Made by a program: the position numbers and the translations under genes. Shown here piece by piece: positions 2,300 through 58,392 of a stretch of DNA of 64,000 bases. Every line of letters starts with the position of its first letter. Positions within the stretch are counted from its first letter, which is position 1. Source of the stretch: Chiloscyllium plagiosum (Eukaryota); NCBI RefSeq assembly GCF_004010195.1, contig NC_057749.1:11513540-11577539 (forward strand). The letters run 5' to 3'. The notes beneath the pieces were generated by a model. The model saw nothing but the letters and a program-made list of their open reading frames with translations. It searched no databases and was not told the origin of the DNA.

Positions 2300-2525
2300 G
2301 CACAAAAACAGTTGCTGGAAAAGTCAGCGGGTCTGGCAGCATCTGTGAAGAGAAATCAGAGTTAATGTTTTGGGTCCAGTGACCCTTCAGAATTGGAGGA
2401 AGGGTTGCTCGACCCAAACTTTAATTCTGATTTCTCTCCTCAGATGCTACCAGACCTGGTGAACTTTTCCAGCAATTTCTGTTTTTGTTTCTGATTTACA
2501 GCATTAGTGATTTTTTGGGTTTTTA
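2300..2525. mobile_element. Fold-back PLE 3'-end element (family E), degenerate hammerhead motifs
   Basis: Inverted arms gttgctggaaaagtcagcgggtctggcagcatctg...cagatgctaccagacctggtgaacttttccagcaat; degenerate TSD atttctattgggg/atttcttttgggg. Confidence 0.65.
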
Positions 2526-2659
2526 TTTCTTTTGGGGAGGTTTGCTCTGGCAGACATTTAAGAAAATACTTCATGACTCAAAGCTATATCCCAGTGAAGG
2601 AGCATGATTCTGGGAAGTGGATAAACTGATGGTGGTTAATGGCAGAAGTTAACGATATT

Positions 2660-3840
2660 ATCAAATTGAAAGAAAAAGGGCAAGTAGTGGGTGTAATATA
2701 TTTGGATTTTCGTAAGGTGTTTGATAAGATCAGGCTCTGTAATGTATGAACCCAAGGTGTTGAAGATAATATATTAGCATAGCTAAAGGATTGGCTAACT
2801 AATAGAGAACAGAGTTGGGATAAGGAAGGTATTTCCAGATGGCAACCTTTCACTAGTGGAGTGCCACAGGGATCAGTGCTGGACTACAAGTTTTTACAAT
2901 AAGCATTAATGACTGAGATGAGGAAAGTGAATATACCCATCACCAAGTTTGTAGCTGACAGAAAAATAGGTGGCAGAACTTGTGGTAAGGATGACACGAG
3001 GTGTCTGCAGAGAGATATGGACAGGTTAAATAAGTGAGTGAAGTCTTGGCAGATGGAATATTAGGCGGAGAATAGTGAGGTCATCCAGGAAGAGCAGAGG
3101 TGCTGCATATTAAGTGGAGAAAGATTGTAGAAAGCTACAGCACAGAAGGTTTGGAAGAACTAGTCCATGAATCTCAAATATCTAGCAGCCAAGTTCACAG
3201 GGTAATAGGGAAGGTAAATGGAATGTTTGCCTTTTTGTCAGAGGGAATTGAGTATAAAAGTAGAGAGGCTTTGCTAAAACTGAGAGCGAGGACTGCAGAT
3301 GCTGCAGTACCATAGTTGAAAAATGTGGTGCTGGAAAAACACAGCAGGCCAGGCAGCATCCGAGGAGCAGGAGAATTGACATTTCCCTGAAGAAGGGCTT
3401 ATGCCCGAAACGTTGATTCTCCTGCTCCTCGGATGCTGCCTGGCCTGTGTTTTTCCAGCACCACATTTTTCAACTTTGCTAAAACTATATAAGGCACTTG
3501 GCGGACCACAGCAAGAGTATGGTGAACTGTTCTGAGTCCCTTTTTTCAGGGCAGATATGCTGGATTGGCAGAAGTTCAGAGAAGTTTCAGGAGACTGACA
3601 TGGTATGAAAGGACTGTCTTATGGAGAGAGGTTGAACAAGGTCTGTACTCATTGGAATTTAGAAGAATGAGAGATGACCTTATTGTAGCAAAATTCTTAT
3701 GCTAGTTGACAGGGTAGATGTGGAGACCTCATTTCTTCTTGTGGAAGTGTCTAGGACCAGACCACATCTCAAAATAAGGCGTTCAAAGACAAAAGTTAGG
3801 AGGAATCTGTGGAATTCTTTAACACATAGGGTGGTTGAAG
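2660..3840 (+). mobile_element. CR1-like LINE ORF2 (RT) fragment, interrupted by PLE insertions; its 3' end resumes at approx. 6410-6590
   Basis: Encodes decayed YLDFRKVFDK and SGVPQGSVLG motifs. Confidence 0.8.
3282..3474. mobile_element. Fold-back PLE 3'-end element (family A) with 12-bp TSD tttgctaaaact
   Basis: TSD at 3270-3281 and 3475-3486; inverted arms gttgaaaaatgtggtgctggaaaa / ttttccagcaccacatttttcaac; hammerhead core at 3387-3414. Confidence 0.85.
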
Positions 3841-3842
3841 CT

Positions 3843-6408
3843 AGGAGAAAGTGAGGACTGCAGATGCTGGAGATCAGTCAGTGTGGCAGTGTGGAAAAGC
3901 ACAGCAGTTCAGGCAGCATCTGAGGAGCAGGAGAATCAACATTTCGGGCATAAGCCCTTCAACAGGAATGAGGGGAGTGGTGAAGGGGGCGGAGAGATAA
4001 ATAGGGGGTTGGGCTTGGGGGAAGGCGATTGGTAGATGGCAGGGCTGATAGTGATAGGGTGGAGTGAATAGTTGGAAAGGAAGGTGGACATGTAAGACAG
4101 TTCAAGAGACAGTGTTGAGTTGTTAGGCCGTATCTGGGATAAGGTGGGTAGGGGAAATGAGGAAACTGGTGAAATCGATTGTTGATGCCGTGTGGTTGGA
4201 GGGTCCCAATGTGGAAGATGAGGCATTCTTCCTCCACTCGTCGGGTGGCTTGGATTTGGCAGTGGAGGAGGCCCAGGACTTGCATGTCCTTGGCAGGGTG
4301 GGAGGGGGAGTTGAAGTGATCAGCCACAGCCCAGTGGGGTTTTTTAGTTTGTGTGTCCCAGAGATGTTCCCTGAAGCATTCCACGAGTTGGTGTTCTGTC
4401 TCCTCAATGTAGAGGAGACCACATCAAGAGCAGCAGACACTGTAGATGAGGTGTTTGGATGTGCAGGAAAATGCGTGGGTGCCTTGGACGGAGGTGATAG
4501 CGGTGGGGTAGGTGCAGGTTTTACACCTTTTGCAGCAGAATGGGAAGGTGCTGGGAATGGAGGGTGGGTTTGTGGGGGGTGTGGACCTAATGAGGGAGTC
4601 GTGGAGAGGATGGTCTCTCTGGAATGTTGATAAGGGAGAGAAATATATCCCTGGTTGTGGGGTCTGATTGGAGGTTGCAGAAATGGCAGAGGATAATCCG
4701 CTGTATCTGGAATTAGTGGGGTGGAAGCTGAAGAATAGGAGAGCAGGTGGTGGTTTCTATCTTTGTTGCATTTGGAGGGGAAAGTGTGCAAAGTGGAAGA
4801 GGTGAGCAGCTGGATGGCATTATTGACCACATGGGAGGGGAAATTGTGGTCCTCGAAATAGGAGGCCATCTGGCATTTCCTAGAGTGGAATTGCTCCTGG
4901 GAGCAGACATGGAGTTGGAGGAATTGGAAGAATTGGAAGTAAGGGATAGCATTTTTACAGGAGAGGGGTGAGAGGAGATGTAGTCCAGGTAGCTGTGGGA
5001 GTTGGTGGGTTTGAAGTAGATTTGTGTTGAGACTGTCGATGGAGACAGAGGGGTCCAGGAAGGGGAGAGTGGTGTCCAAGATGGTTCAGGTGAACTTGAG
5101 GTCAGGGTGGAAGGTGTTCGTGAAGTTAATGAACTGTTCAACCTCCTTGTGGGAGCATGAGATGGCACCGATACAGTCATCACTGTAGTGGAGGAAAAGG
5201 TGGGGAATGGTGGCAGTGCAACTGCGAAAGATGGGTTGTTCCACGTATCTGATGAAGAGGCAGGCATAGCTGGAGCCCATGCAGGTGCCCCTTTGGTCTG
5301 ATGGAAGTGGGAGGTTTCTAAGGAGAAATTGTTCAAGGTGAGGACCATTCCGCCAACTGAATGAGTGTCGGTGAAAGGGTACTAGTTGGGTCAGCGGGAG
5401 AGGAACAAACTGAGGGCTTGGAGACCTTCGCTATGGTGGATGGATGTGTACAGGGACTGGCTGTCCATGGTGAAGATGAGGCATTGGGGGCCAGGGAAAT
5501 CAAAGTCATGGAGGAGATAGAAGGTGTGGGTGGTGTCCCAAATGTAATGGGGAGTCCCTGGATCAAGGGGGATAGGACAGTGTCCTGATATGAGAAGATA
5601 GGTGTCTTGATATGATAAGGTGGGGCAGGAGCATGCAGAGAAGATGGGTCAAACTGGGCAGTGAAGTTTGAATTTTGGGTAAGAGGTAGAGCTGGGCAGT
5701 GTGGGGTTCTGGGACTATGAGGTTGGAGGTTGTGGATGGGAGATCCCCTGAGATGATGAGGTTGTGGATGGTCTGGGAGATGATTTGGTGATGGGAGGTG
5801 AAGTCGTGGTCAAGGGGACAGTATGAGGAGGTATCAGTGAGTTGGTGCCTGGGTTCAGCAGTGTAGAGGTTGGTGAGCCAAACTATGACTACATCCCCCT
5901 TGTTCTCTGGTTTAATGGGGAGGTTGAGTTTGGAGCGGAGTGCTGCGCTTTGTGAGGGAGAGAGGTTGGAGCGGGTGATTTGGGTAGATAGGTTGAAGTG
6001 GTCAATGTCACAGTGGCAGTTGAAGATAGAGGTTGAGGGCAGGTAACAGACTAGCATAGGGTGTCCAAGTGGAATGGGGTATGTTGGAGGTGGGAGAAGA
6101 GGTCCTCGGAGGGTGGGTGAGAATCCTGATGGAAAAAGTAAGTCTGGTGATGGTAGAAGAAAGATTTGATGTCCCAACGCACGTTGAATTCATTGATCTG
6201 GGAGCATAGTTGGATGCAGGTGAGACCTTTTTACTCAGGACGGAGCAGTCATCCTCCATGTGGAGGTGGTCTGGGGGATGGTAAAAGCTCAGCATGGCTG
6301 GGAATGTGGCTGTGGTCAGTGTCATTGGTGAATGTCACCAAAGGAAGTGACGTAAACCATGGTGGTTGGGGTGGGGGGTGGTGGAAGCGACGTTCCATGT
6401 GATGTCAC
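3843..6408 (-). mobile_element. Penelope-like retroelement, near full length, frameshifted (RT + GIY-YIG endonuclease)
   Basis: Minus-strand fragments LYLLPKI, MGSSYACLF...YSDD (RT) and FREHL...VADHFNSPSH...LIFHIGTLQPHGIN (GIY-YIG C-terminus); 3' end matches family A hairpin arms; inserted in a CR1. Confidence 0.85.
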
Positions 6409-7063: not shown

Positions 7064-7327
7064 GAGCAAAGGAGAAAGTGAGGATAGAGATGTACAGCAT
7101 GTAAACGGACCCTTCGGTCCAACTCGTCCATGCTGACCAGATGCTGGAGGTAAGAGTCAAAAAGTGTGGTGTTAGAAAAACAAGCCGATCAGGCAGCATC
7201 CGAGGAGCAAGATAGTTGACATTTTGAGCATAAGCTTTCATTCCTGATGAAGAGCTTATCCTCGAAACGTCGATTCTCCTCGAATGCTTCCTGACTGGCT
7301 GTGCTTTTCCAGCACCACACTTTTTGA
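7064..7327. mobile_element. Fold-back PLE element (family A) with 13-bp TSD ctcctttattctg and a nested CR1 tail
   Basis: TSD at 7051-7063 and 7328-7340; inverted arms; hammerhead core at 7244-7271; host is an antisense CR1 3' end (approx. 6790-7400). Confidence 0.85.
7240..7275 (+). ncRNA. Minimal type I hammerhead ribozyme motif
   Basis: CTGATGA-a-gag-cttatc-ctc-GAAA-CGTC: conserved core, stem II and GUC cleavage triplet. Confidence 0.7.
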
Positions 7328-9177: not shown

Positions 9178-9372
9178 GGAGAATGTGTTGTTGAAAAAGC
9201 ATAGCAGGTCAGGCAGCATCCGAGGAGCAGGGGAATCAACGTTTCGGGCGGGAGCCCTTCAAACAAACTGAAACGTTGATTCTCCTGCTCCTTGGATGCT
9301 GCCTGACCTGTTGTACGTTTCCAACAACACACTCGACTGTGTTCTCCAGCATCTGCCGACCTCACTTTCTCC
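9178..9372. mobile_element. Fold-back PLE element (family A)
   Basis: Inverted arms; long tail ctccagcatctgccgacctcactttctcc on the right; degenerate TSD ttgtgcgcagatg/ttgtgttcagatg. Confidence 0.75.
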
Positions 9373-9703: not shown

Positions 9704-9910
9704 AAATAGACAGGCAGGAGGCTGGAAGAACACAGCAGGCCAGACCGCATCAGGGGTGGAAAAGTCGATGTTTCGGGTGTAACCCTTCTTCAGGATTACT
9801 TATGCCCAAAATGTCGACTTCTTTATCTGATGCTGCCTGACTTGCTGTGTTCTTTCAGCCTCCTGTCTGTCTATTTTGGATTGCAGCATCTGTAGTTTTT
9901 TTTTGCCTCA
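9704..9910. mobile_element. Fold-back PLE element (family A-related) with a minus-strand hammerhead core
   Basis: aaatagacaggcaggaggctggaagaacacagc...gctgtgttctttcagcctcctgtctgtctattt; reverse complement of 9765-9795 reads CTGAAGA-agggttacaccc-GAAACATC. Confidence 0.75.
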
Positions 9911-12154: not shown

Positions 12155-13634
12155 GTGAGTCACCAGCTACATTTAACTATGCTGTGAATTTCAGGATATT
12201 AAGTAGTCAGTTGTACAATGGTTCAAGGCCAGATGGCAGGAAATGACAGAAGGCAACTTATTTTTTTTCCTTAAATTTCTCGAACCTGATAGATGTAGTT
12301 CCAACTGATAGAGTTCTGACAGAAAGTTGTGTGTCAAATAAAGGATGTTACCATATTAACTAAGTTGGTGAAGAAAATCTGTAACTGAGCCATTTCAACT
12401 CGGCTGATTCCTCAGCTGTTCTGATACAGAAAAGTGGTAATGGAGAGGTTTGCGATTAACTTTACCATCTAAATTAGGTAGTAGAAATATCAACCAGGGT
12501 TCGGGTTCTTTTTCTTGGTTGCGAGCCTGTGATCCCTCCTAGAAGATACAGAGAAATATAGAACGTAGGAAGAGGCCATTTGGACCTTTTGAGCCTGCTC
12601 TGCCATTCCTCACGATTGTGGCTGATTTTCCAACTCAGTGGCCTAATTCTGCTTTCTCCCCATAACCTTTGATCTCATTTGCCCCAAGTCCTATATTTAC
12701 CTGCCCCTTGAAGACATACCATGCTTTGGCATCAACTACTTTGTGGTAATGAATTCCACAGGCTCACCACTCTTTGGTGAAAAAATGCCTCCTCATCTCC
12801 ATCCTAAATGGTCTACCCTGAATCCTCAGACTGTGATACCATTGCGAACATCCTCTCTGCGTTTACCCTATCTGGTCCTGTTAGAATTTTAAGTCTCTAT
12901 AAGGTTTCCCCTCATTCGTCTGAACTCCAGCGAAAATAATCCTAACCTAGTCTATCTATTTCTCGCACGCCAGTCCTGCCATCCCTGGAATCAACCAGGT
13001 AAATCTTCACTGCACTCCCTCGAGAGCAAAAACATCCTTCCTCAGAAAAGGAGACCAAAACTACACACAGTATTCTAGGCGTGGCCTCACCAAGGTCCTG
13101 TATAACTGCAACAATGTATTGCTGTTCCTCTACTCAAAACCTATTGCAATGAAGGCCAATATACCATTCGCCTTCTTTACAACTGGCTGCACCTGCATGC
13201 TTACCTTCAGCAACTGGTGCACACGGCATCCAGATCCAGCTGCACCCCCTCCTCTCCTCTCCCAATTGATCGCCATTCAGGTAGTAATTTTCCACCTTGT
13301 TTTTGCTTCCAAAGGGAATAACCTCACATTTATCCAAATTATACTGCATCTGCCATTAAATTGTCCGTTCACCCAATCGGTCCAGATCATGCTGAAGGAT
13401 CTCTGCATCCTCGTCACACTTCGCCCTCCCACCCAACTGCAAACTTTGAGGGAACAAAATGTAACATCTCATTCAAATCAAGGAATATATATTGTGAATA
13501 GCTGGGATCCCAGCACCAATCCCCCTGACACAGTGCTCGTTGCAGTTTGAAAAGGATCCACTGATTCCTACAATTTGCTTCCCCTCTGTCAACCAGTTTT
13601 CTATCCAACTCTATACATTTCCTCCAATCCCATG

Positions 13635-14264
13635 TGTTATGGATGAGGCCAGACCACTCAAAACATACTTAAGCAGACAGCCCGGACCATAACTTTGCAA
13701 TTTGTTTTGGTATGTGTACATTGAAAATTAACTGGAGTAAGTTAGTAAGTTGACTGCTAGCTTTTAGAACAGACAAAAATTTATTTACAAAATTACACAA
13801 TGAAGCATACAGAACAGAATAAAGAACCCCAACAGAACTCAGTCTATCCAAACTAGATTTAATTATGCTATTCTGAATATACACAACAGTCCCAATAAGC
13901 AAACTCCCTTTAAAAACCAATATAAATGGAGCATATGCTTACAGGTTGATTTTTGAAGGGCAGAGAGAGTTTCCACACAGCTCACTGTTGAACTTCTCAC
14001 CAGTTCAAGACTGAACTAAACTGCTCAGCTAGAGAGCTGACCACTCTCCTTTCATTATACAGGTCACATCTAAAACATGACCACTTTTGGCTTGAAGTCT
14101 CATTTGCTTACATATAAACAAAAGGCCTCTCAAAATCCTTTTCATCTCTGTACCAAACCAGACTGATTGGAGTCTGGCCTGGTTTATTATCCCCCTGAAA
14201 AAATCAAGGACAGCGTATCCTTGAGCCAAGGAACAGCTTTTACAAGAAAAAGGGCATTGTCTCA
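13635..14264 (-). repeat. 3' LTR of the Gmr1-like element
   Basis: Begins tgttatgga, ends ctca next to the polypurine tract; aligns with 18866-19478. Confidence 0.85.
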
Positions 14265-15352
14265 CCTCTTTTTCCTCTCTCTCTCTCCCCCCCCCCCCCC
14301 CCCAACAAAAAGAAAATGAGCCATGAATACCAAAAGATGGCTTCATTTTTAATCCTTCAAAACCCGGTTAGTAGTCTGAACACACACATACACTATAACT
14401 ATAAATATACAAGCATGCACAACCCCATGCAAAATCAGGCTGTGGTGCACTCACCACCGAATCCCTCCGTATCTCATTCAAGTCTCGATAACATATTCGA
14501 GTCATGTTTTCGCGACCTTCCACTTGCACAATTGTCAAATTGAATGGCTGCAACAACAAGCTCCATCTAAAAAGTTTGGCATTTTTGTCCTTAAATTTTT
14601 CCATAAATGTCAATGGGTAGTGATCAGTGTATACGAGGGTTTCAGATGCATTGATAATTTAAACACTGCAATGTTGTACTGCCAACACCAAGCTTAAAGT
14701 CTGTTTCTCCATCATTGAATATTTCTGTTGATGAACGTTCAACTTCCCGGAACAACACCCAATGGGTCTTTCTATTTCCTTGTCATCCTACTGCAGGAGT
14801 ACCATACCGACACCCACAACACTGGCATTGATAGTCATCTTGAAAGGCTTCATGTCATCCAGTGTAACTAATACAGTCTTTAGGCTGTCAAATGCCTTTT
14901 GACAGTCCGCTGTTCGCTGAAACTTCTTGCCCTTTTCAAATAATTCAGTGAGTGGAGCAGCCAAACTGCTAAAGTTCAGCACAAACTTTCAATAAAATCC
15001 ACTTGACCCCAGGAACCGCTTTTTTTGTCGACTGTGTGGGAAATTGCCCAATTATTTTGACTTTTGCATGCCGTGGGGCCATTTGTCCATGTCCAGTAAT
15101 ATGGCCCAGGCTTGGTGACTTAGGCTTTGGCAAATTCACTTTTAGCTAGGTTTACCATTCAGCCTGCCTTCCGAAGTCAATTGCACAAGTTTGATAAATG
15201 CTGTAAATGTTTCTTCCATGAGTGACTAAAAATCACCAGGTGATCAATATACACCACACAGTTGGGTAATCCAGCGATGACCTTATTAGTCAGTCTCTGA
15301 AATGTGGCTGGAGCGTTTTTCATTCCAAATGGCATGACTTTGAATTGATATA

Positions 15353-15630
15353 GGTGAAATACAATGACTGCAGATGCTGGAAACCAAATTCTGGAGTAGA
15401 ATGGTGCTGGAAAAGCATAGCAGTTCAGGCAGCATACGAGGAGCAGGAAAATCGGCAATTTGGGCAAAATCCCTTCATCAGGAATACAGACAGAGTGCCT
15501 GAAGAGGGTGGTGCTCTCTTCAGGCACTCTGTCTGTATTCCTGATGAAGGGATTTTGCCCGAAACGTCGATTTTCCTGCTCCTCGGATGCTGCCTGAACT
15601 GTGCTTTTCTAGCACCACTCTACACCAGAA
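15353..15630. mobile_element. Fold-back PLE element (family A) inserted in the Gmr1 RT, 14-bp TSD
   Basis: TSD tttgaattgatata (15339-15352) / tttgaactggtata (15631-15644); near-perfect hairpin with a short loop; RT reads ...GLYQF / YQFKVMPFG across it. Confidence 0.88.
15537..15572 (+). ncRNA. Minimal hammerhead ribozyme motif (mirror copy on the - strand at approx. 15453-15485)
   Basis: CTGATGA-a-ggg-attttg-ccc-GAAA-CGTC. Confidence 0.7.
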
Positions 15631-18600
15631 TTTGAACTGGTATAATCCATTTGGCGTTACGAAAGCCGAGATTGCCTTTGCTCTCTCTGACAGAGGTACT
15701 TGCCAATAGCTTCTGAGCAAGTCCAACTTCGAAATATAAGTTGTCTGTCCCGCCTTTTCGATACAGTCCTCCAACCAGCATGCGCTCTATCTCCTTCTGA
15801 ACCAGTGCCAACATTAGAGGGTTATGCCGATAAGGATGTTTCTTAATCGGAACCACCATCTCCTATATCTATATCATGCACAATTAGGTTAGTACTTCCC
15901 AGATGATTTCCGTGTATCTCCCCATGTGATAGTATTAATTCTTTCAGGTCATTTTGACTTTCTTGTGGACGGTAACTTAATAATTTATCACAATTATTGG
16001 CAACTTTCTCATTTACCAATTTGATTTGAGGAATGTCCAATTCAGAATCCTCTGAACTTGGCTCTTCCTTCTGTGCTGTAATCATTAACACCTTCTTGCT
16101 TTCCTTACCTATCAAAATACCTTTTGAGTATATCCACATGACACTGAGATTTCTTCCTGTCTGGAGTCCTTATCAAGTAGTTCACCCCACTCAATTTTCT
16201 CTCTATTTGACCAGGTCTACTAAACCTGGCTTTTAAAGGTTCGCCTATCACTGGAAGTAACACCAATCCCAATGGGGCAAAATTGCAAATTTGTGACTTC
16301 TTATCCTCCTCTTGTTTCATTGTATGCCATGATACTTTTAAATGCTGTCCAGCCAATCTAGCTCTACTTAATGGTTCTCTAAAATTTGACCCATAGTTCA
16401 AATGGGTGGTCTCTGAATTCTGCTTTATTAATTTCTCCTTAATCAATTTTATCAGTCCTCTTACTTCATGCCCAAAAATTAATTCAAATGGACTGAATTT
16501 GATTCATTTGGTGCATCTCTGATTGCAAGAGGTACACATTGAACTCCCTAGTCCCAATCATCAGGCTAATCCTGACCATAAGACCTCGACATGGTCTTTA
16601 GTGTTTGATGCCATCTCTCTTGCGCTCCCTACGATTCCGGCTGGTACCAGTAGATTTGAATTGCTTTATTCCCAAGTTATCCATAACCATTTTAAATAGT
16701 TTGGATGTGAAGCTTGATCCTTGATCTGACTGGATCACTATTGGCAGTCTGGATCTCGTTTAAAAAAAAAAGTTAAGTAATTCACCTACCACACCTTTTA
16801 GCTGTGATGTTGCATAATGGGATTGCGTCTGGAAACCTAGTCGACACATCCATTATTGTTAATAAATACTTATTCCCACTTTTTGTTTGAGGTAGGGGTC
16901 AATCGATCAAGACTCTTGTGAAAGGTTCCTCAAATGCTGAAGTTGATATTAAAAGTGCAGGTTTTATTTCTGCCTGTTGTTTTCCAATTAGCTGACATGT
17001 ATGATACGTCTGGCAAAATTCAACTACATTCTTATGTAGTGCAGGCCAGTAGAAATGCTTTTGTATTTTAGCCTGTGTTTTCCTCACCCCTGAATGATCT
17101 CCAAGTGGTAGCTCATGCACCACTCGCAGCACATTCTTTCTATACCCAACTGGCAAAACAATTTGATGAATCTCTGCCCATTTCTCATGTGCTTGAATGT
17201 GTGATGGTCCCCATTTCCTCATTAAGACATCATTTGTTAAGTAATTAAGACATAACTTGTTAAGTAATAACACACACAAATGCAGTCACTTTTTATCCTT
17301 TTCTGTAAATGACTTTTGATATAATAGTTTTAACTCATCTTTCTGCTATAATTCAATCAACTTTGCAGAGCTAAAGATACTTGCACGTTTACCTATTTGC
17401 TCCTTCTCTGTTCCCCATATCTGATCAGGCAAGTTGTCGGAAAATGCAATGTCAGCTTCCTTATTTGTGCCTTTCGTTCCCTCCTGCATCAGCTTGTGCC
17501 TCTGTGATCTTGTGATCACAAAACCAGGGAAAATTCCTGGAAAAACATTCTCCATGTCTTAAGTTGCCTGCGTCTTCTGGCTTTTCAACTAGAGCAGGCA
17601 GCATGCCTACTAGTGAATCAGCTATATCATTTGCAAGGACAAATTGCATTCCTGGAGCTGAGAGTTTGTCCAGTACTCCTACCACAAATTCTCCACTCTT
17701 CTCTGGACTCTCTAGCCTCTCTTTACGTAACTGAGCACATTTTGACGCACCATGAATTCCTGTTCCCGGTACCTTTTCTGGCAATAGTTCCTCTGGAGTA
17801 CATATCTCCTCAGCACTACAGACTCAGAGAATCCTGTGGTCCTTAATGTTGTAACTTCCTTACCTATTGCTCCTGGCCTATGTGAATCAACTTTACCCGT
17901 ACATGTATATTTTTTAAGCAGGCCTGGCACTTCCTCCTTTATCAACCTCTGATCATCTTGTGCACTCTGAGGCAGTTGTCTAATTTCCCTTGAGCTTTTT
18001 GTTACTTGTCCAACAAAACTCCCAGGCTTGTCTAGTTTTCCTACATCTGGCTTTCTCTTAGCCCACAGCACTGATTTTATGTGTCCTGCTTTATTACAGT
18101 GAAAACAATGGAACTTTTTAACTTCTTTGTCTCCCTCAAGGGTTTCCTTATTACCTTGTGGTAAGTTATCCATATGGCCTTCATTGAGGTTGACCATTCC
18201 CTTTCCACGTGAGAATTTTTCTTTTCCCCAATTTCTATCCCTCATGGACTGAAATTGATCCTGGAAGCCAAACCATGTTTTATGGACCAGCTCATAAGCG
18301 TCAGCCACTTCAGCTGCTAATCTTGTTGTTTTAACTCTCTGCTCTTCCACATGAGTTTGCATTACTTCCTCACTAAACCTACCCTCAGCCTTTATCTCCA
18401 GCCTTTAAAGTGTCCGTTTTTGAAGTTCAAAAGCACTCTTTTTCTTTCTCTGTCTTTTTCCCCTCTTCTGCTTTTAATCGTAATTCAAACTGGGTCATTT
18501 CTGCTGCCTTTTCATTATCTCTTGCCTCTAACTCAAGCTGCTTCATTTGCAATTGAATTCTTGCTATCTCTATAGATTCTGAGGGTTTCTCCAGCAAGTT

Positions 18601-18865
18601 TAAATGCTGAGCTACTGCTGTAGTTCTCTCTCCTTTTCCTCACCAAAACAGCCAGTTCCAATACCAGCTTCTCTAATTCCTGCAATTTGGTCATCTTTAC
18701 TTTGTGCAAAACTTCCAAAGTCACTGCATACATATCAGTCACCAAAAGTTTTCTGGATAAGAGCCATTCCTATCCTAAGCTTTGTCTGCCCAATCAAACC
18801 AATACCCGAAGTAAAAACACTGGTACATACCACTCACTGTTTAAGATCCCAGATGTCCCCCAATC

Positions 18866-20165: not shown

Positions 20166-20504
20166 AGGAGAGGGTTTGAAGGTAGATTAATAGGAGGAAG
20201 ATGATTCAATTGAACTTATATATTACTGCATTGTAATTCTTCGTTAGAATAACAATTTTCACAATGTGATTTTGCTGACTGGTTAGTACAGAAGCTGAAA
20301 TTGTATTCTCCACAGAAACTTCAATAATAAGTGGCTGAGATTTTTAATCCTTCAATGATCTGTCTAAACACTGGTTAGCACTGTAGCTTTTACATAGTGA
20401 AGCAACTCTTTGCTGGTAATTACTTGCAGTCTGCACAAGAAGAGTTTTGCTCTAATTTGGACAGATGCTGTGAATTCTGAATAAGCCCCACTTCATAGGT
20501 TGAG

Positions 20505-20652
20505 AACTGAAGAAGGGCATGAGCCCTTCTTCAGGAAAAAGGGCTCATGCCCGAAACGTCGATTCTCCTGCTCCTTGGATGCTGCCTGACCTCCTGCGCT
20601 TTTCCAGGAACACATTTTCAGCTCTGATTTGCAGTCTTCACTTTCTCCTAGA
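20505..20652 (+). mobile_element. PLE 3' end (family A) with a locally inverted hammerhead segment
   Basis: ctgaagaagggcatgagcccttcttcagg palindrome followed by aagggctcatgcccgaaacgtc and the family A tail. Confidence 0.7.
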
Positions 20653-21629: not shown

Positions 21630-21790
21630 CTCTAGTAGAAATTGCTAGAGAAATTTAGCAGGCTTTGTAGTATCAATGGAAAGAAAGCAGAGTTAATGTT
21701 TCAAGTCTAGTAGCCTTCTTAAGAACAGAACTGTATGTCCATAGATGCAGTCTGCTGAGTTTCTCCTCCAATTTCTGTTATTGTTTTTAG
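21630..21790. mobile_element. Old fold-back PLE element (family E)
   Basis: agaaattgctagagaaatttagcagg...ctgctgagtttctcctccaatttct inverted arms, heavily decayed. Confidence 0.5.
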
Positions 21791-21852
21791 TTAATATTGA
21801 AAGTTGCCATTTGCATGTCACAATGTTGTTTGCCCCTTTCATTGAACTTTAG

Positions 21853-24829: not shown

Positions 24830-25999
24830 CAAAGTTTAAAAATCACACAACACCAGGTTCTAGTCCAACAGGTTTATTTGGAAGCACTAGCTTTCGGAGC
24901 ACTGCTCCTTCATCAGGTGGTTGTGGGGGATAAGATTGTAAGACACAGAATTTATAGCAAAGGTTTACAATGTGATGTAACTGAAATTATATATTGAAAA
25001 AGACCTGGCTTGTTTAAGTCTCTCATCTTTTAGAATGACCATGGTGGTTTTCGTTCTTTTATATGTAAATCACAAAATTTTTTTTAAAGTTACATTCTCA
25101 AGTGAACGTCAACAATTGGTGTCATGTTGGCCCAAATAATGTATTGAAGGTGTTAACTCCCTGTGTGAGGCTGTCCACAATGGTCACACAGATTCTAATC
25201 TAAAAAAACGGATTTACAGAATCTTACACGGATTCATGCAGTTTTTGAGCAAAGCAAAATGTAATTTTACTTCGGTACCCATGGGGATGGCCTCAACCAT
25301 GACCTTTGGTTCATGCCACACTCCAGGTGACCCCATTGCACTATACACACTCCCAGACAGATGGACTCGCGCACACACGCGCTTTCACGCGCACCCTCTC
25401 ACAGACTAAACCCCTTTGCACATGCTCTCACCCTCTCACAGACACTCATAAACCCCCCCCACAACCACCACCATCATCGCACGCAAATGCACACATAAGC
25501 ATATAAGTTGTACTTTGTACTTGTAGAATTACATTTTACTTTCCTCAAAAACTGCATGAATCCATGTGAGATTCTATAAATCCATTTTTTAGATTAGAAT
25601 CAGTCTGACCATTGTGGACAGCCTCTCATAGGGAGTTAACACCTTCAATACATTATCTGGGCTGACATGACACCAATTGTTAAAGGTCAGTTGAGAATGT
25701 AACTTTTTAAAAAAAAAAATTGTGATTTACATATGAAAGAACTGAAACCACCATGGTCATTCTGAAAGATGAAAAACTTAAACAAACCAGGTCTTTTTCA
25801 ATATATAATTTCAGTTACATCACATTGTAAAACACAGAATTTATAGCAAAGGTTTACAATCTTCTCCACAACCACCTGGTGAAGGAACAATGCTCTGAAA
25901 GCTAGTGTTTCCAAATAAACCTGTTGGACTATAGCCTGGTGTTGTGCGATTTTTAACTTTGTACACCCCAGTCCATCATCAGTGTCTCCGAATCATGAT
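24830..25999. mobile_element. Large fold-back PLE element (family B), arms approx. 440 bp, TSD gcaaggtgga
   Basis: TSD at 24820-24829 and 26000-26009; spacer encodes GIY-YIG C-terminus-like FGTHGDGLNHDLWFM; hammerhead cores at 24885-24919 (-) and 25873-25907 (+); inserted in a + strand CR1. Confidence 0.88.
24885..24919 (-). ncRNA. Minimal type I hammerhead ribozyme motif
   Basis: Reverse complement: cac-CTGATGA-a-ggagc-agt-gctcc-GAAA-GCTA-gtg (stem I cac/gtg, perfect 5-bp stem II). Confidence 0.78.
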
Positions 26000-28709: not shown

Positions 28710-28913
28710 AGTGCAAGTGAAGACTGCAGATGCTGAAGATCAGAGTTGAGCGTGTAGTGCTGGAAAAGCACAGCAGATCAGGCAGCATTTGAGGAGCAGG
28801 AGAATTGATGTTTCGGGCATAAGATTCCTGATGAAGGGCTTACGCCCGAAATGTCAATTCTCCTGCTCCTCAGATGCTGCCTGACCTGCAGTGCTTTTCC
28901 AGCACTACACTCC
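28710..28913. mobile_element. Fold-back PLE element (family A)
   Basis: Inverted arms; hammerhead CTGATGA-agggcttacgccc-GAAATGTC at 28828-28855; degenerate TSD gcctgatagtgc/gcctaaaagtgc. Confidence 0.8.
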
Positions 28914-32435: not shown

Positions 32436-32442
32436 TTCAGGA

Positions 32443-32557
32443 CCCCGAAACGTCGATTATCCTAGTCCTCTGATGCTGTCTGACCTGCTGTGCTTTTCCA
32501 GCACCACTCTAATCTTGACTCTGATCTCCAGCATCTGCAGTCCTCACCTTTGCCTAG
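32443..32557 (+). mobile_element. PLE 3' end (family A), single arm
   Basis: cccgaaacgtcgatt...ctccagcatctgcagtcctcacctttgcctag. Confidence 0.75.
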
Positions 32558-43498: not shown

Positions 43499-44048
43499 AG
43501 TTTGTGAAAAGATTTGTAGCTCGGGTGCTCATTGTTGTGGTTCTGTTCGCCGAGCTGGGAATTTGTGTTGCAGACATTTCGTCCCCTGTCTAGGTGACAT
43601 CCTCAGTGCTTGGGAGCCTCCTGTGAAGCGCTTCTGTGATCTTTCCTCCGGCATTTGTAGTGGTTTGAATCTGCCGCTTCCGGTTGTCAGTTCCAGCTGT
43701 CTGTTGCAGTGGCCGGTATATTGGGTCCAGATCGATGTGCTTATTGACTGAATCTGTGGATGAGTGCCATGCCTCTAGGAATTCCCTGGCTGTTCTCTGA
43801 ATTCCTAGAGGCATGGCACTCATCCACAGATTCAGTCAATAAGCACATCGACCTGGACCCAATATACCGGCCACTGCAACGGACAGCTGGAACTGACAAC
43901 CAGAAGTGGCAGATTCAAACCACTACAAATGCCGGAGGAAAGATCACAGAAACGCTTCACAGGAGGCTCCCAAGCACTGAGGATGTCACTTAGACAGGGG
44001 ACGAAACGTCTGCAACACAAATTCCCAGCTCGGCGAACAGAACCACAA
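43499..44048. mobile_element. Fold-back PLE element (family C), arms approx. 255 bp, 14-bp TSD caatgtttccttaa
   Basis: TSD at 43485-43498 and 44049-44062; mirror ORFs REFLEAWHS...RRLPSTEDVT on both strands; hammerheads at 43570-43609 (-) and 43974-44013 (+). Confidence 0.92.
43974..44013 (+). ncRNA. Minimal type I hammerhead ribozyme motif
   Basis: gca-CTGAGGA-t-gtc-(loop)-gac-GAAA-CGTC-tgc (stem I gca/tgc). Confidence 0.75.
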
Positions 44049-44904: not shown

Positions 44905-46150
44905 TTCATAGAGAAACACAGCATGGAAACAAACCCTTCGGTTCAACTCGTCCATGCTGACCAGACATAGCAGCCTAATTAAGTCCCATTTGCCAACACT
45001 TGGCCCATATCCCTCCATCCCTCCAAACCCTTCCTATTCATATACCCATCCAAATGCCTCTTAAATGTTGCAATTGTACCAGCCTCCATCACTTCCTCTG
45101 GCAGCTCTTTCCATCCATGCACCACCCTCTGCGTGAAAAAGTTGCTCCTTAGGTCCCTTTTATATCTTTCCCCTCTCACCCTAAACCTAAACCCTCTAGT
45201 TCTGGACTGCCCCAACTCGGGGAAAAGACTTTGTTTATGTTATCCATGCCCCTCATGATTTTATAAGCCTCTATAAGGGCACCCTTCAGTCTCTGACGCT
45301 CTAGGGAAAACTGTTGCAGCCCCTCCCTATAGCTCAAGTCCTCCAATCCTGGCAATAAGCGAGTTTTGAGAAGATTTGTAGTTCAAGTTGAGGTTCTGGA
45401 TGTAGGTTTGCTCGCTGAGCTGGAAGGTTCGCTTTCAGACGTTTCGTCACCATACGGTAACATCTTCAGTGAGCCTTCGAATGAAGCACTAGTGGTGTAA
45501 CCTGCTTTCTGTTTCTATGTTTGGGTTTCCTTGGGGAACCTTCCAGTTCAGAGAGCAAATCTACATCCAGAACATCCTTGTAAACCTTTTGTGAACCCTT
45601 TCAAGTTTCACAGCATCCTTCCGATAGGAAGGAGACCAGAATTGCATGCAATATTCCAAAAGTGACTTAACCCATGTCCTGTACATCTGCAACAAGCCCT
45701 CCCAACCCCTATAGTCAGTGCTCTGACCAATAAAGCATGCCAAATTTCTCCTTCATTAACCTATCTACCTGCGACTCTACTTTCAAGGGGCTATGAATCT
45801 TCACTCCAAGGTCTCTTTGTTCAGCAACATTCCCTAGGACCTTACCATTAAATGTATAAGTTCTGTCCTGATTTGCTTTCCCAAAATGCAGCCACCTCCC
45901 ATTTATCTAAATTAAACTCCAACTGCCTGTCCTCAGCCCATTGGCCCATTTGCTCAAGATCCCGTTGTAATCAGAGATAAGCTTCTTCATTGTCCATTAC
46001 ACCTCCAGTTTTGGTGTCATCTGCAAACTTACTAACTATACCTCCTATATTCACATCCAAATCCTTTATAAAAGTGGCAAAGCAGTGGACCCAGCACTGA
46101 TCCTTGTGGCACACCACTGGTCACAGGCCTCCTGTTTGAAAAGCAACCCT
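44905..46150 (-). mobile_element. CR1-like LINE 3' part nested in the Gmr1-like element
   Basis: RSNFFTQRVVHGWKELP and LLEYCMQFWSP on the minus strand. Confidence 0.85.
45357..45572. mobile_element. Asymmetric fold-back PLE element (family D)
   Basis: gttctggatgtaggtttgctcgctgagctggaaggttc versus gaaccttccagttcagagagcaaatctacatccagaac; minus-strand hammerhead tca-CTGAAGA-t-gttacc-gtat-ggtgac-GAAACGTC-tga at 45435-45472. Confidence 0.78.
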
Positions 46151-50049: not shown

Positions 50050-50765
50050 TAGAATACAATCCCTGCAGTGTGGAAACAGGCCCATTTGGCCTCGTGAGTC
50101 TACACCGACCCTTCGGAAAGCATTCCACTCAGATCCATTCCCATACATTATCTCTGTAACACTGCATTTCCCATAGTTAACACACCTAACCTAATTCGGA
50201 TATGCCGGTGTTGGACTGGTGTACAAAGTTAAAAATCACACAACATCAGGTTATAGTCCAACAGGTTTAATTGGAAGCACACTAGCTTTCGGAGCGACGC
50301 TCCTTCATCAGGTGATTGTGGAGGGCTCGATCATAACACAGAATTTATAGCAAAAGTTTGCAGTGTGATGTAACTGAAATTATACATTGAAGAATTGATT
50401 AACAGACAATCAATTCTTCAATGTATAATTTCAGTTACATCACACTGCAAATTTTTGCTATAAATTCTGTGTTACGATCGGGCCCTCCACAATCACCTGA
50501 TAAAGGACTATAACCTGGTGTTGTGTGATTTTTAACTTTGTACACCTAACCTACACCTCCCTGGACACGGCAGGGTAATTTAGCATGGCCAGTCCTCCTA
50601 ACTTGCACATTTGTGGACTGTGGGCAGAAGCCAGAGCACCTGGAGGAAACTCATGCAGACATGGGGAGAGCATGCAAATTCCACACAGGCAGTTGCCTGA
50701 GGGCAGAATCAAGTCTAGATCCCTGGTGCTTGAAGCAGCATTGCTAACCACTGAACCACAGTGCC
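50050..50765 (-). mobile_element. V-SINE (HE1-like) split by a PLE hairpin
   Basis: Tail at 50050-50193; body and head resume at 50542-50765. Confidence 0.8.
50194..50541. mobile_element. Fold-back PLE element (family B), 12-bp TSD acacctaaccta
   Basis: TSD at 50182-50193 and 50542-50553; near-perfect arms; minus-strand hammerhead cac-CTGATGA-a-ggagc-gtc-gctcc-GAAA-GCTA-gtg at 50280-50314. Confidence 0.9.
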
Positions 50766-51439: not shown

Positions 51440-53550
51440 TAGACCAAAGACATGGCAGCAGAAATTAGGCTGTTCAGGCCACCTAGCCTGCTCCGCCATT
51501 CAATCGTGACTGATAAGTTTCTCAACCCATTCTCCCGCTTTCTCCCCATAACCCTTCACTATCAAGAAGCTATCTATCTTTGTCTTAAATATACTCCAGA
51601 ACCTGGCATCCACAGCTTTCTGTGGCAGTGAATCCCATAGATTTGCTACTCTCTGACTGAAGAAGTTTCTTGTGTTCTAAAAGGTCTTCCCTTTACTCTA
51701 AGGCTGTGCCCTCGGGCCCTAGTCTCTCCTACTAATGGAAACATCTTCCCAACATCCACTCTGTCCAGGCCATTCAGTATTTAAACTTTCAATTACATCC
51801 CCCATCATCCTTTCAAACTCCATCGAGAATAGACCCAGAGTCATCAAATGTTCCTCTTATGTTAAGCTTTTCATTCCAGGGACCATTCTCGTGAAACTCT
51901 TCTGAACACTGTCCATGGCCAATACATCATTCTTGAGATATGGGACCCAAACCTATGAAACTGCTCCAAATGTGGTCTGATTAGACCATCAGAAGTACAT
52001 CCCTGCTTTTATATCTCAGAATAAATGCCATTGTTACATTTGTCTTCCTAACTACTGATTCAACCTGCAAGTTTAATTTGAGGGAATCTTGGACAAGAAC
52101 TCCCAAGTCTTTTTGCACTTCAGACTTCTGAATGTTCCCCCCCCTTTAGAAAATAGTCCATGCCTTTGTTCTTTCTACTAAGGTGCATGACCACACGTTT
52201 TCCCACATTGTACTCCATCTGTCACTTCTGTGCCAACTCTCCCAACCTATCCAAATCTTTCTGCAGCATCCCCACCTCCTCAGTGCTACCTATCTTTGTA
52301 TCGTCTGCAAACTTAGCCTGAATGCCCTTGGTTCCTTCATCGAGATCTTTAATGTGAAAAGATGTGATCCCAACACTCGCGGAACACCACTTGTCACTGG
52401 CTGGCACCCTGAGAAGGGCCTTTTTATCCCCATTTTTCGTCTTTCTGCCAGATAGCCGGGTTTCTATCCATGCTGGCACCGTACCTGTAGACCATGGAGC
52501 CCTTGCCTTACTCATTAGTCACCTTGTCAAAGGTCACCTTGAGTCTAAGTAGATAACATCCATTGGTTCTCCTTGGTCTAATCTGCTTGTTACTCCCTCA
52601 AAGAATTCTGGAAGATTTGTCAGGCATGATCTACCTTTGATGAAACCATGCTCACTCTGCCCTATTTTACCATATGCTTCAAAGTATTCAGAAATCTCAT
52701 CCTTCGCAATGGGTTCCAGGATCCTACCCATGTCCAAGGTTAGGTTAATTGGTCTGTAATTTTCCGTTTTCTGCCTTATTCCCTTTTTAAACATGGTTGT
52801 TGCATTAACAATTTTCTAGTCCTCTGGGACCTTTCTGATTCTAGTGATTCCTGAAAGGTTGCCACTGACCCTTCCACTATCTCTTCAGTTTTGTCTCTTA
52901 GAACTTTAGGGTGCAGTCCATCTGGTCCAAGTCATTTATCCACCTTCAGGCCATTCAGTTTTCTAGCACCTTCTCCTTGGTGATGGCCGCTATACTCAGC
53001 CCTGCCCCCTTACTCTCTAACTTCTGGGAAATTACTCTTGTCTTCCACTGTGAAGACTGATACGAAGTAATTATTCAGTTCCTTAGCCATTTCCTTGTTC
53101 CCCATTACTATCTCATCTATATTATTTTCCAGCAGACCACTGTCCACTTTTCCCTTTCTTTTGTTCTTTATATATCTAAAGAAACTCTGACAGTCTACCT
53201 TTACATTACTGGCTTGCTTACCCTCATTTTTAATCTTCTCCCTTTTTTTTGTTTGTACCCTCTTGGTCTTTGTAAGCTTCCCAATCCTCTGGTTTCCCAC
53301 TGCCCTTTGCCACATTATATGCTTTCTCTTTGATGCTATCCCTGACCTCCCTAGTCACCTGTGGGTTGCCTCATCCTCCCTGTGTCATTCTTCTTTTTCT
53401 GTAGGATGAATCTCTGCTGTGTCTCCTGAATTACTTCCAGAAGCTCTTGTCATTGCTGTTCCACTGTCTTTCGTGCTAGGCTCCTTTCCCAGTCGATTCT
53501 GCCCAGTTGCTCCCTCATGCCTCTGTAGTTTCCTTTTATTCAGCTGAAAT
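51440..53550 (-). mobile_element. CR1-like LINE ORF2, approx. 2 kb
   Basis: ENYRPINLT...HGFIKGRSCLTNL...DVIYLD; FADDTK. Confidence 0.88.
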
Positions 53551-53636
53551 ATTGTTACCTGAGATTGTATTTTTTCTCTCTCAAATTGTCCTTATCTTAA
53601 ATGCTGCTTTCATAGCACATTATTTATTTGTTCTAG

Positions 53637-53856
53637 TTTACCGGCGTATTGTGGAATCTGATGTGGGCGATTCTTTCTACATACGGACTCACTTTGACTA
53701 TGAAAAGGAATCGCCGTATGGTTTAAGTTTTAACAGAGGCGAGGTATTCCGAGTGGTGGATACACTGTATAATGGGAAGCTGGGTTCCTGGCTTGCAATT
53801 CGAATTGGCAAAAACCATAAGGAGGTGGAAAGGGGCATCATTCCAAACAGAAACAG
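53637..53856 (+). CDS. TJP1: TJP1 exon (approx. 13), SH3: [73 protein letters not shown]
   Basis: tctag/gtgtgt boundaries; 220 nt. Confidence 0.97.
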
Positions 53857-54099
53857 GTGTGTGATCAGAACTTACACCCAGTGAACATTTTTGTTTTTGT
53901 TAATATGATTTTATATCTATGGTAAAACGTGAGGAATTCCCACCTAAAATTACAGGATTTTACTATTGTCAATGAAATGTCCCAGTAGCAGCCTGGAGAA
54001 AAGATGGATTGGAATGAAACCAAAGCAGTCAGGGTTAGGGCTTTGTTTGTTTGTCAAACCAATATATTTGTAAGGATTGTTTTAAAACAGAATTTACAT

Positions 54100-56594: not shown

Positions 56595-56779
56595 AGCTGA
56601 ACAGATGTCTAGTGTGCAGTACACACTACCCAAGACTGCTGGTGGGGATCGGGCGGACTTTTGGCGGTTTCGTGGACTTCGTAGTTCAAAGAGAAATTTG
56701 AGAAAAAGCAGAGAAGATCTTGCAGCTCAGCCAGTTCATACCAAGTTTCCAGCTTATGAGAGAGTAGTCCTTCGAGAAG
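56595..56779 (+). CDS. TJP1: TJP1 exon (approx. 14), U5 region: [62 protein letters not shown]
   Basis: accag/gtaaag boundaries; 185 nt. Confidence 0.97.
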
Positions 56780-57633
56780 GTAAAGGGAAAGGAACTGAGT
56801 GTTTACTGGGGTGAGCAAAATCACTCTCTGCTCACTTGGGGAGAGACCCTGTCAACCTCATTTTCTTTATTATTTGTTCTCGATGGGAGTACGTAAAATC
56901 AATTCCATTTCATCAGAATTTCCTTTAGAAAGGACAGTTAAACTTAATTCACATGTAATCGAACCAATCAGTATTGATTCTCTTAAGTATTAGGTTGTGA
57001 TTAATTTAAATAAATGAATACCTCAACCTTTTGGGAAACATTGAAGATTGTTGAAGCTGGTGTAATCTCAAAGGTTTTGCCTTTACCTGGTCCCTGACCA
57101 GGGCAGGAGTACGTCATACCTCACTCAGACAGTTGACAGGAAGCAGAGAGCCGGCAGATGGAGTACATCAAAATACTTGCTGTTCCTATTGCAGCATTGG
57201 TCACTGTTCCCAACAGACTAGAGATATGATTACCAATAGATTGGGGATATGATTACCACTTTATGCAGTTTTGTGTGTTGCTGAGAAAAACACTTTTAAA
57301 TGAAGACATGTAAATGATTGTTATTGTAGTGCCTGATTTGCATGTTCAATCCTGGAATGATTAAATCCACTGATGTGCAGATGTCTTTGAGATTTTTAAT
57401 CTTTGTCAGTTATACATCTATCAGTCCTATACATTGTAAATGCCTTTGGTCCCATATTTCCTCCTGTCCTCCTCCCTCCCCCGAATTAATAGCTTTTTTT
57501 CATCTTTTCTAGGCCGGATGTAGTGCAAATTCAATGTCTAAACAAGTCAAATTGTGTTTAAATAATTAACAGTGATTTACAATATACAATGTACAATATT
57601 GCTTATGATAATTTTGGGTTATCTTTTTTAAAG

Positions 57634-58376
57634 TTCTGTTCACCGAGCTGGGAATTTGTGTAGCAGACGTTTCGTCCCCTGTCTAGGTGACATCCTCAGT
57701 GTTTGGGAGCCTCCTGTGAAGCTCTTCTGTGATGTTTCCTCTGGCATTTATAGTGATTTGTCTCTACTGCTTGCGATTGTCAGTTCCAGCTGTCAGTTCC
57801 AGTTGTCCGTTGCAGTGGCCGGTATATTGGGTCCAGGTCGATGTGCTTATTGATTGAATCTGTGGATGAGTGCCATGCCTCTAGGAATTCCCCGGCTGTT
57901 CTCTGTTTGGCTTGTCCTATAATTGTAGTGTTGTCCCAATCAAACTAATGTTGCATGTCATCTGCGTGTGTGGCTACGTAGGATAGCTGGTTGTGTCGTT
58001 TCGTGGATAGCCACACACACAGATGACACGCAACATGAGTTCGACTGGGACAACACTACTATTATAGGACAAGCCAAACAGAGAACAACCAGGGAATTCC
58101 TAGAGGCATGGCACTCATCCACAGATTCAATCAATAAGCACATCGACCTGGACCCAATATACCGACCACTGCAACGGACAGCTGGAACAGGCAACCGGAA
58201 GTGGCAGAGACAAACCACTATAAATGCAGGAGGAAACATCACAGAAGCGCTTCACAGGAGGCTCCCAAGCACTGAGGATGTCACCTAGACAGGGGACGAA
58301 ACGTTTGTAACACAAATTCTCAGCTCGGCGAACAGAACCACAATGAGCACCCAAGCTACAAATTTTCTCACAAACT
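57634..58376. mobile_element. Fold-back PLE element (family C) inserted at the TJP1 exon-15 acceptor; TSD ttatct(6-7)aaag
   Basis: TSD at 57619-57633 and 58377-58392; arms 57634-57976 and 58008-58337; GIY-YIG C-terminus HEFDWDNTTII...REFLEAWHS; hammerheads at 57663-57702 (-) and 58269-58308 (+). Confidence 0.92.
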
Positions 58377-58392
58377 TTATCTTTTTTTAAAG

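Follow-up and report, generated by a model that had tools for sequence, protein, structure and literature searches.

Head-to-head 3' ends of Penelope-like elements in a shark genome: fold-back insertions with minimal hammerhead motifs as probable direct products of integration

The integration of Penelope-like elements (PLEs) is still poorly understood, a single biochemical study having established that cleavage and extension take place on both strands of the target and that the element RNA has two start sites. In LINE-1 twin priming, both target strands prime complementary DNA (cDNA) in one event and head-to-head segments come to lie within one target-site duplication (TSD), part of a single copy being inverted without being duplicated. 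Here, we describe fold-back insertions, hereafter called hairpins, each of which consists of two 5'-truncated PLE 3' ends joined head to head, in a 64-kb stretch of the genome of the shark Chiloscyllium plagiosum (NC_057749.1, positions 11,513,540 to 11,577,539; this whole stretch is referred to as the window). We propose, with a probability that we put at roughly 0.7, that each hairpin is the direct product of one PLE integration event and not the copy of a hairpin master. Precedents exist for several parts of this picture. Among the features described for PLEs are an adjacent, inverted, 5'-truncated copy and a tail of 30 to 40 bp at one end (PMC8557442). Purified PLE protein cleaves and extends both strands, two adjacent internal start sites define the tail, and the in vitro account gives the start site as no different between the two strands (PMC11167929). 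Minimal hammerhead pairs on opposite strands, 100 to 700 bp apart, are reported from Schistosoma, and the published PLE minimal motifs are described as cleaving poorly in vitro (PMC4209133). Finally, non-long-terminal-repeat (non-LTR) retrozymes are presented as tandem hammerhead repeats and as proposed non-autonomous derivatives of PLEs (bioRxiv 10.64898/2026.07.22.740005).

The comparison centers on two shark families, F1, which is short and the most abundant (hairpins 3282, 7064, 9178, 15353, and 28710, named by window position), and F2, a young PLE family (43499 and 57634). Like the canonical endonuclease-bearing PLE insertion units described in PMC8557442, the shark insertions combine outward 3' ends, a one-sided tail, a TSD of variable length, a terminal hammerhead, and a parent open reading frame (ORF) with reverse transcriptase (RT) and GIY-YIG domains. 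Unlike those units, the inverted pair usually stands alone, without a full-length copy, and is the main outcome in F2 (18 of 22), while the junctions of F1 fall inside the ribozyme and recur. With PAc, the Poseidon element of Anolis carolinensis, the shark elements share an ORF that starts inside the hammerhead, an AC-rich 3' end, and two 3' termini that differ by the tail (PMC11167929); the F2 ATG consists of A9, the bulged base next to it, and the base that opens helix II, and it lies about 28 nt before the cut site, compared with 26 nt in PAc. The two systems part in that the PAc start sites are used alike on both strands in vitro, whereas the shark hairpins, which we know from their sequence, are one-tailed almost without exception.

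The motifs themselves resemble the minimal hammerheads of metazoan PLEs (Cervera and de la Pena 2014, PMC4209133) in their CUGANGA and GAAA cores, bulged base, vestigial palindromic helix III, short helix I, and family-specific helix II; the account of PLE hammerheads given there does not name the shark families. The insertions are also similar to non-LTR retrozymes in being short non-coding units with a PLE-type type I hammerhead that depend on PLE machinery. However, retrozymes, as characterized in the preprint, are direct tandem repeats thought to yield circular RNA after double cleavage, whereas the shark units are inverted, mostly contain one whole core or none, and have a predicted rod as their transcript. 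The difference from LINE-1 twin priming is that PLE hairpins contain the same 3' segment twice; one F1 copy, L034:627, does have the non-overlapping inverted layout. In this copy (L034:540-760, with the element at 627-659), only the last ~60 nt with the tail are inverted and placed before the rest within one 13-bp TSD, which amounts to a twin-priming-like product without duplication. All defining traits fit endonuclease-bearing PLEs and their minimal hammerheads, a known kind of element. In what we consulted of the PLE and hammerhead papers cited here, we did not find a description of the one-tail rule in hairpins or of these shark families.

Inverted pairs were called across the window at arms of at least 40 nt and a spacing of at most 1,500 nt. 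This repeat search returned 23 pairs, among them 11 of the 13 loci that an earlier note, written from the sequence of this DNA, had listed as inverted pairs of PLE ends, and locus 7064 was recovered by blastn (arms 7138-7235 on the minus strand and 7238-7311 on the plus strand). Inverted pairs of 5'-truncated retroelement 3' ends were thus confirmed at 12 of the 13 listed loci, the remaining one, 21630, being a decayed and unequal pair (Table 1). Fold-back hairpins account for several per cent of the window. The TSDs that the note had ascribed to most of them were detected by script at six loci (2300, 3282, 7064, 24830, 43499, and 50194; 10 to 17 bp with no or one mismatch) and by eye, with one or two differences, at three more (57634, 15353, and 9178); the other loci are too decayed.

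The identity of the arms was established by searches of the 3.56-Gb assembly, to which all genome-wide results refer, and by profile comparison. Longer genomic copies of F2 run from the arm into open frames, the copy L039 with RVT_1 and YVDD, and a genomic copy of this family displays the endonuclease motif CxxC...YIGQTGRQL...EH, even though Pfam GIY-YIG gave no score on a 207-aa F2 frame. The relatives of this frame are RT proteins, from Chiloscyllium at 90 to 93% identity and from flatworms at 45 to 56%; F2 homologues contain PF00078, and a few of them PF01541 as well. A PLE RT/endonuclease (EN) profile, built from 35 retrieved PLE proteins, matched both F2 hairpins, the arms of which encode the C-terminal end of the PLE ORF and, beyond the hammerhead, its N-terminal end. 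In the long F1 copy, the profile gave five collinear matches running from 5946 to 4184 on the minus strand (independent E values of 1e-6 to 3e-3). Judged by sequence, these data show the F2 arms to be PLE 3' ends, and F1 to be a PLE as well on the strength of the one long, decayed copy with a collinear ORF in the window. Because other genomic copies of this long element are only 73 to 79% identical, its lineage is old.

Domain searches were less informative. Pfam, applied to 9 plus 51 window ORFs, assigned no PLE domain to the long copy and detected only an LTR element, a LINE-like element (LINE, long interspersed nuclear element), and host exons; the genome-wide Pfam search for GIY-YIG gave one marginal match and was otherwise uninformative. 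No homologues were found for the 320-aa frame at 4126-5085 on the minus strand, and this frame is probably not the real one. As a separate observation, the best matches of the F2 frame after the shark proteins were dozens of tapeworm proteins (Spirometra and Sparganum), with 45 to 56% identity over the whole query; such likeness between a vertebrate and a parasitic flatworm is strikingly close and raises the question of horizontal transfer.

The two arms of a hairpin are not equivalent. Each hairpin has one arm with a tail, ~35 nt long in F2 and ~45 nt in F1, and one arm without, a rule that all 12 scorable hairpins of the window obey, as do 13 of 13 F2 hairpins with both ends visible, the latter sample having been picked by the 3'-terminal 119 nt. 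Two-tailed exceptions lie outside these sets, one among the F2 look-alikes (L017) and one among the copies with the 3282 junction (L090). The outer ends of the hairpins correspond to the two types of PLE 3' terminus already known. At the center, F2 arm ends cluster 230 to 275 nt from the 3' end, with arm lengths of 75 to 1,074 nt among 18 sampled hairpins, and F1 arm ends are concentrated inside the hammerhead.

We then compared the central junctions of six hairpins, using junction-spanning queries of 81 to 83 nt in a genome search that scores only the candidates most like the query, so that a clustering of look-alikes arises from the search itself. Four junctions were unique. For 43499, nine loci align end to end, yet the aligned length is 71 to 108 nt where the query has 81, and the rest mostly match a single half; for 57634, the match is restricted to a single half at 38 of 39 other scored loci; and the junctions of 50194 and 15353 were likewise unique in the genome search. 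When the whole 43499 hairpin served as the query, ~40 full-length look-alikes were recovered and suggested a shared junction, a possibility that alignment of 18 F2 look-alikes ruled out: their arms stop at different points, each has its own TSD of 10 to 14 bp, none has the 43499 junction, and the closest differs from it by three bases at the center. Elsewhere, in a 1.7-kb F2 hairpin (L033:3283-4984), the junction lies in a 73-nt inverted repeat of the parent element, which suggests a homology-guided template switch.

The other two junctions, those of the F1 hairpins 28710 and 3282, recur in the genome, and the copies that share them allowed us to ask how their arms vary. Among 13 copies with the 28710 junction, 15 substitutions are mirrored in both arms; seven of these are shared and eight are private to one copy, where chance would give about 0.2 private mirrored variants. 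Shared variants confined to one arm are found in this set almost only at CpG sites. The corresponding set of 11 copies with the 3282 junction, from which L093 and L100 were left out as their right arms are cut or replaced, contains 11 mirrored variants, eight of them outside CpG. Since a hairpin copied as a unit would transmit one-arm changes and not mirrored ones, these variants point to re-creation. They indicate that both arms of a hairpin were copied from the same template sequence, and they imply that the 28710 junction was born separately at least about six times.

Further features of F1 agree with repeated formation. Both recurrent junction types are found on the same subfamily backgrounds. 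Of the copies of the 3282 type, 10 have a left-arm tail, 2 have a right-arm tail, and 1 has a tail on either side. The positions in the ribozyme at which solo F1 copies begin are those at which hairpin arms begin. The five F1 hairpins of the window have five different junctions. The F1 arm is so frequent in the genome that the search skips its words, and with arm ends confined to ~35 nt and a copy number this high, the same junctions must recur by chance. Our data thus point to recurrent F1 junctions that were re-made many times and not inherited. Of the two origins that the earlier note had considered, an independently replicating hairpin class fails the junction comparison at 43499, 57634, 50194, and 15353; it passes formally at 28710 and 3282, where the mirrored variants and the variable side of the tail nevertheless point to repeated re-creation. 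The other, a systematic by-product of PLE integration, is supported by true PLE 3' ends, four unique junctions out of six, the single tailed arm, and the mirrored variants.

From these observations, we infer a pathway that combines double priming, a template jump, and the use of a single RNA. In this pathway, the GIY-YIG endonuclease would nick the two target strands 10 to 17 bp apart, a step for which we lean on PMC11167929, and each nick would prime reverse transcription at the 3' end of the PLE RNA. A cDNA begun at the outer start site would give rise to the arm that keeps the 35- to 45-nt tail, and one begun at the inner site would give rise to the tailless arm. Both cDNAs, templated by a single RNA or by RNAs that share a locus of origin, would terminate early, their ends would be joined head to head via a template jump, and gap repair would produce the TSD. 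That a few junction types recur many times in F1 would follow from its cDNAs ending within the 35-nt hammerhead, which itself may be a mere part of the copied 3' module.

Several of our observations weigh against direct formation at integration. The 28710 junction is matched without gaps or a change in length by at least 34 of the 39 other scored loci (from 1,501 first-look candidates), and the 12 of 12 fetched copies have an identical junction and the same ends with different TSDs; for the 3282 junction, 12 of 12 fetched copies agree within one base, again with different TSDs, the 12 loci in each case being the best matches to the query. Taken alone, such sharing is what a replicating unit predicts. 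In both sets, moreover, some one-arm CpG variants are common to four to seven copies. These could mean descent from a hairpin master for part of F1, although we suspect the choice of matches most like the query. The mirrored private variants need one RNA used twice, or RNAs of one locus, because two independent RNAs would give none, and this step is part of the pathway that we had to deduce. The tail is on the arm that is shorter at the center in 25 of 27 scorable F1 hairpins but in only 7 of 12 of F2, so that no single simple order of events fits both families. Published data also leave the one-tail rule unexplained, as the start sites are alike on both strands in the experiments that PMC11167929 describes. 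Lastly, the hairpin is not always the main product, since only 6 of 18 F1 elements in a flank sample (see below) are inverted.

The recurrent junctions and the shared one-arm CpG variants would suit a self-propagating, non-autonomous fold-back retroposon, represented by the ~200-nt F1 hairpins, in which the whole hairpin is transcribed and the PLE RT copies it as a unit from the 3' end of either strand. The transcript of a 28710-type hairpin is predicted to be a near-perfect rod (-142.6 kcal/mol, z = -18), and subfamily differences leave the arms complementary, as they should if copy-back synthesis, or selection acting on a rod-like RNA, maintained their pairing, which we consider doubtful. 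Yet this retroposon is unlikely given the private and shared mirrored variants, with the separate births they imply, and given the occurrence of the same junction with the tail on either arm and on backgrounds of the other junction type. The solo copies that start at the same ribozyme positions, with recurrence by chance in a very abundant arm, and the five different junctions in the window argue in the same direction. Weaker evidence comes from polyadenylated single-cell RNA, in which reads, at 90% likeness, cover the repeats about equally in both orientations and 98% continue into unrelated sequence; no pile of read starts or ends, at the ribozyme cut site or elsewhere, was seen in this library, which is blind to small and circular RNA, and the pattern fits passive co-transcription. 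A self-propagating hairpin class is possible only for the shortest family. There is a small chance that the F1 mini-hairpins form a shark fold-back retroposon lineage, in which the rod RNA offers a PLE 3' end in both polarities and is copied as a unit, the second arm is re-synthesized from the first in each cycle, so that the arms would stay complementary, and the ribozyme fold, or its dimer, sets the turning point. If they do not propagate themselves, the one-tail rule, taken with the private variants common to both arms, would still imply that the integration complex is a dimer whose halves read the same PLE RNA molecule, using the two start sites.

The private variants common to both arms would be explained at once if a hairpin were a single cDNA that copied back on itself by snap-back self-priming, as in copy-back defective genomes, and so would the tiny loops of 7 to 15 nt at 15353, 28710, 43499, and 50194. 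A copied-back arm, however, cannot hold sequence that the first arm lacks, whereas the tail is on one arm only throughout the window and F2 sets and the untailed arm of F1 usually extends further into the ribozyme; as each arm holds sequence absent from the other, pure snap-back is improbable. It is further disfavored by the match of both outer ends to the two known kinds of PLE 3' terminus and, as we read the sequence, by the absence, at both recurrent junctions, of base pairing that could position the 3' end. As sources of these recurrent junctions, both simple snap-back and the annealing of two cDNAs at the palindromic helix II were considered and rejected, the predicted products differing from the observed ones. 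Long terminal inverted repeats within direct repeats would also be expected of miniature inverted-repeat transposable elements (MITEs) or Foldback-like DNA transposons moved by a transposase, with the likeness to PLEs secondary. That reading is already at odds with the data and has next to no chance of being correct: copies of one family differ in the length of their TSDs (10 to 17 bp), arm length varies between copies over the more than tenfold range given above, the sequence of the arms runs collinearly with the 3' end of an RT/GIY-YIG ORF, a single tail makes the outer ends asymmetric, and solo 5'-truncated copies share the same 3' ends.

If, as we favor, hairpins form directly at integration, the shark genome would hold natural end products of the PLE integration reaction in large numbers. 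Any model of this reaction must then explain why each hairpin has one tail and why both arms come from the same template sequence, along with the family-specific hot spots of cDNA ends, which in F1 lie inside the ribozyme, and a hairpin share of about one third to four fifths.

The hammerhead motifs were identified with a strict descriptor (CUGANGA, no more than one bulged nucleotide, a helix II of 3 bp or longer, GAAA, palindromic A-NN-U, and H), which gave 10 matches in the window, compared with a mean of 0.34 and a maximum of 3 in 100 Markov shuffles. In all 10, an unpaired base separates A9 from helix II, and helix III is reduced to an A-U pair around a 2-nt palindromic loop (ACGU or AGCU). 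Helix II, of 4 to 7 bp, is GGGC/GCCC, GGAGC/GCUCC, GUUACC/GGUGAC, or GUC../..GAC depending on the family, as the earlier note had given it, and since the families differ in sequence yet stay paired, pairing has been preserved through wholly different sequences. In F2, the start codon of the PLE ORF lies inside the hammerhead (43977-44010, plus strand). The call of a putative ribozyme matches the published PLE minimal hammerhead. None of the Rfam hammerhead families was detected at the gathering score in the window, at E values up to 10 in the 64 kb, or in 61- to 66-nt pieces around two cores, so that the covariance-model search that the note had advised returned nothing; this is expected if those models require a helix III. 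Ribozyme monomer segments fold no better than shuffled sequences (z = -0.7 to +0.7).

The description of cores as often present on both strands did not hold, as no hairpin other than 57634 has a strictly intact core on each arm; in most short hairpins at most one arm has a whole core, because the junction falls within the ribozyme. Correspondingly, of the rod-like RNA with a core in each polarity that had been envisaged, the rod is predicted for 28710, but cores on both strands are limited to 57634, and in the modeled transcript of a hairpin the core would be buried in the rod. At relaxed thresholds, Rfam placed plant and animal microRNA precursor families on hairpin centers (50336-50472, 15473-15550, and others), with E values down to 6e-12 but without reaching the gathering scores; the fold-back structure itself accounts for these false positives.

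How common hairpins are depends on the family. Among 27 independent F2 loci, sampled by the last 119 nt, we counted 18 hairpins, 4 solo copies, and 5 loci that are unclassifiable on account of runs of N; as a hairpin has two chances of being drawn, hairpins make up roughly two thirds of F2 events. For F1, the flanks of loci fetched for another family contained 18 well-matched elements, namely 6 inverted forms (5 with TSDs of 10 to 16 bp), 7 short solo copies, and 5 long copies that defied classification; in the window, 7 of 9 F1 elements are inverted. The claim that the hairpin is the dominant insertion product is therefore sound for F2 and holds in part for F1. Runs of N lie at or beside the center of F2 hairpins in 11 of 29 sampled loci (L051, L054, L058-L061, L063, L064, L069, L071, and L074), where the inverted repeats may break the assembly. 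Given their share of the window, the adjoining assembly gaps, and the false microRNA-like matches, hairpins should be modeled in repeat and small-RNA annotation of shark genomes.

Table 1. Fold-back insertions and related PLE copies in the window (TSD, target-site duplication)
Feature	Position	Strand	Details
Fold-back, 2300 family, helix II GGGUC/GACCC (decayed core)	2299..2526		inverted pair 2319-2467; tail on right arm; TSD 13 bp, 1 mismatch
F1 mini fold-back	3282..3475		inverted pair 3345-3447; tailed left arm begins at G12 of the ribozyme; right arm with whole minimal hammerhead 3387-3414 (+); TSD 13 bp, exact
Long decayed PLE, the only one in the window	3846..5946	-	tailed 3' end at 3846; mutated hammerhead near 3960; five collinear RT/EN profile matches, 5946 to 4184
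F1 fold-back	7064..7326		tail on left arm; hammerhead 7244-7271 (+); TSD 14 bp, exact
F1 fold-back	9178..9372		inverted pair 9181-9334; tail on right arm; right arm begins at G12; left arm core mutated; TSD 11/13 by eye
F1-like variant fold-back	9704..9876		cores decayed; tail-like extension on right; found by repeat search and blastn
F1 fold-back within the RT region of a decayed LTR retrotransposon	15353..15636		inverted pair 15421-15601; both arms extend ~35 nt upstream of the ribozyme; core intact, 15541-15568 (+); tail on left arm; TSD 12/14 by eye
F1 copy with complex small fold-back inside the ribozyme	20500..20606		blastn match 20507-20606; absent from the earlier list
Decayed unequal inverted pair	21630..21790		one side 73% to 2300 family; other arm seen by eye
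1.17-kb fold-back, GGAGC/GCUCC family	24830..25999		inverted pair 24836-25956; core intact, 24888-24916 (-); tail on right arm; TSD 10 bp, exact
F1 mini fold-back	28712..28912		inverted pair 28752-28910; tailed left arm begins in loop II; right arm begins 5 nt before C3; predicted rod transcript
Solo F1 3' end with tail	32444..32550	+	begins inside the ribozyme; absent from the earlier list
F2 fold-back	43499..44048		inverted pair 43530-44053, arms 255 nt (97%); hammerhead 43977-44010 (+); 35-nt tail on left arm only; TSD 14-17 bp
Unequal fold-back, related family, helix II GUUACC/GGUGAC	45357..45580		inverted pair 45390-45576; hammerhead 45438-45469 (-); tail on left arm
GGAGC/GCUCC-family fold-back	50194..50541		inverted pair 50207-50557; core 50283-50311 (-); right arm core lost to internal 44-nt deletion; tail on left arm; TSD 12 bp, exact
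F2 fold-back	57634..58378		inverted pair 57633-58338; strictly intact cores 57666-57699 (-) and 58272-58305 (+); tail on right arm; TSD 13-14 bp, one indel, by eye

Other repeats and genes share the window with these insertions. The decayed LTR retrotransposon that hosts the 15353 hairpin extends over 13400-19600 on the minus strand and retains, spread over several disrupted frames, RT, RNase H, and the zinc-finger and C-terminal domains of an integrase. A second decayed retroelement, probably a LINE, occupies 28920-32843 on the minus strand and includes an ALKBH8_N-type domain (28920-29165) and pieces of RVT_1 (31076-31683); the 28710 hairpin adjoins it, and the solo copy at 32444 lies inside it. 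Two frames on the plus strand, at 26856-27197 and 53480-53881, encode a PDZ and an SH3 domain and are probably exons of a host gene, in which case the hairpins would be intronic. Two further fold-backs are unlike the PLE families: an AT-rich, perfect 90-nt inverted repeat at 61313-61610 (100% complementary, 118 nt apart), which could be a young MITE or an assembly effect, and a ~1-kb structure without a hammerhead at 35358-36339, the arms of which are 82 to 85% complementary and the flanks of which are inverted too. A weak match to a hAT dimerization domain at 19729-20094 on the plus strand (E = 0.003) is probably the relic of a DNA transposon.

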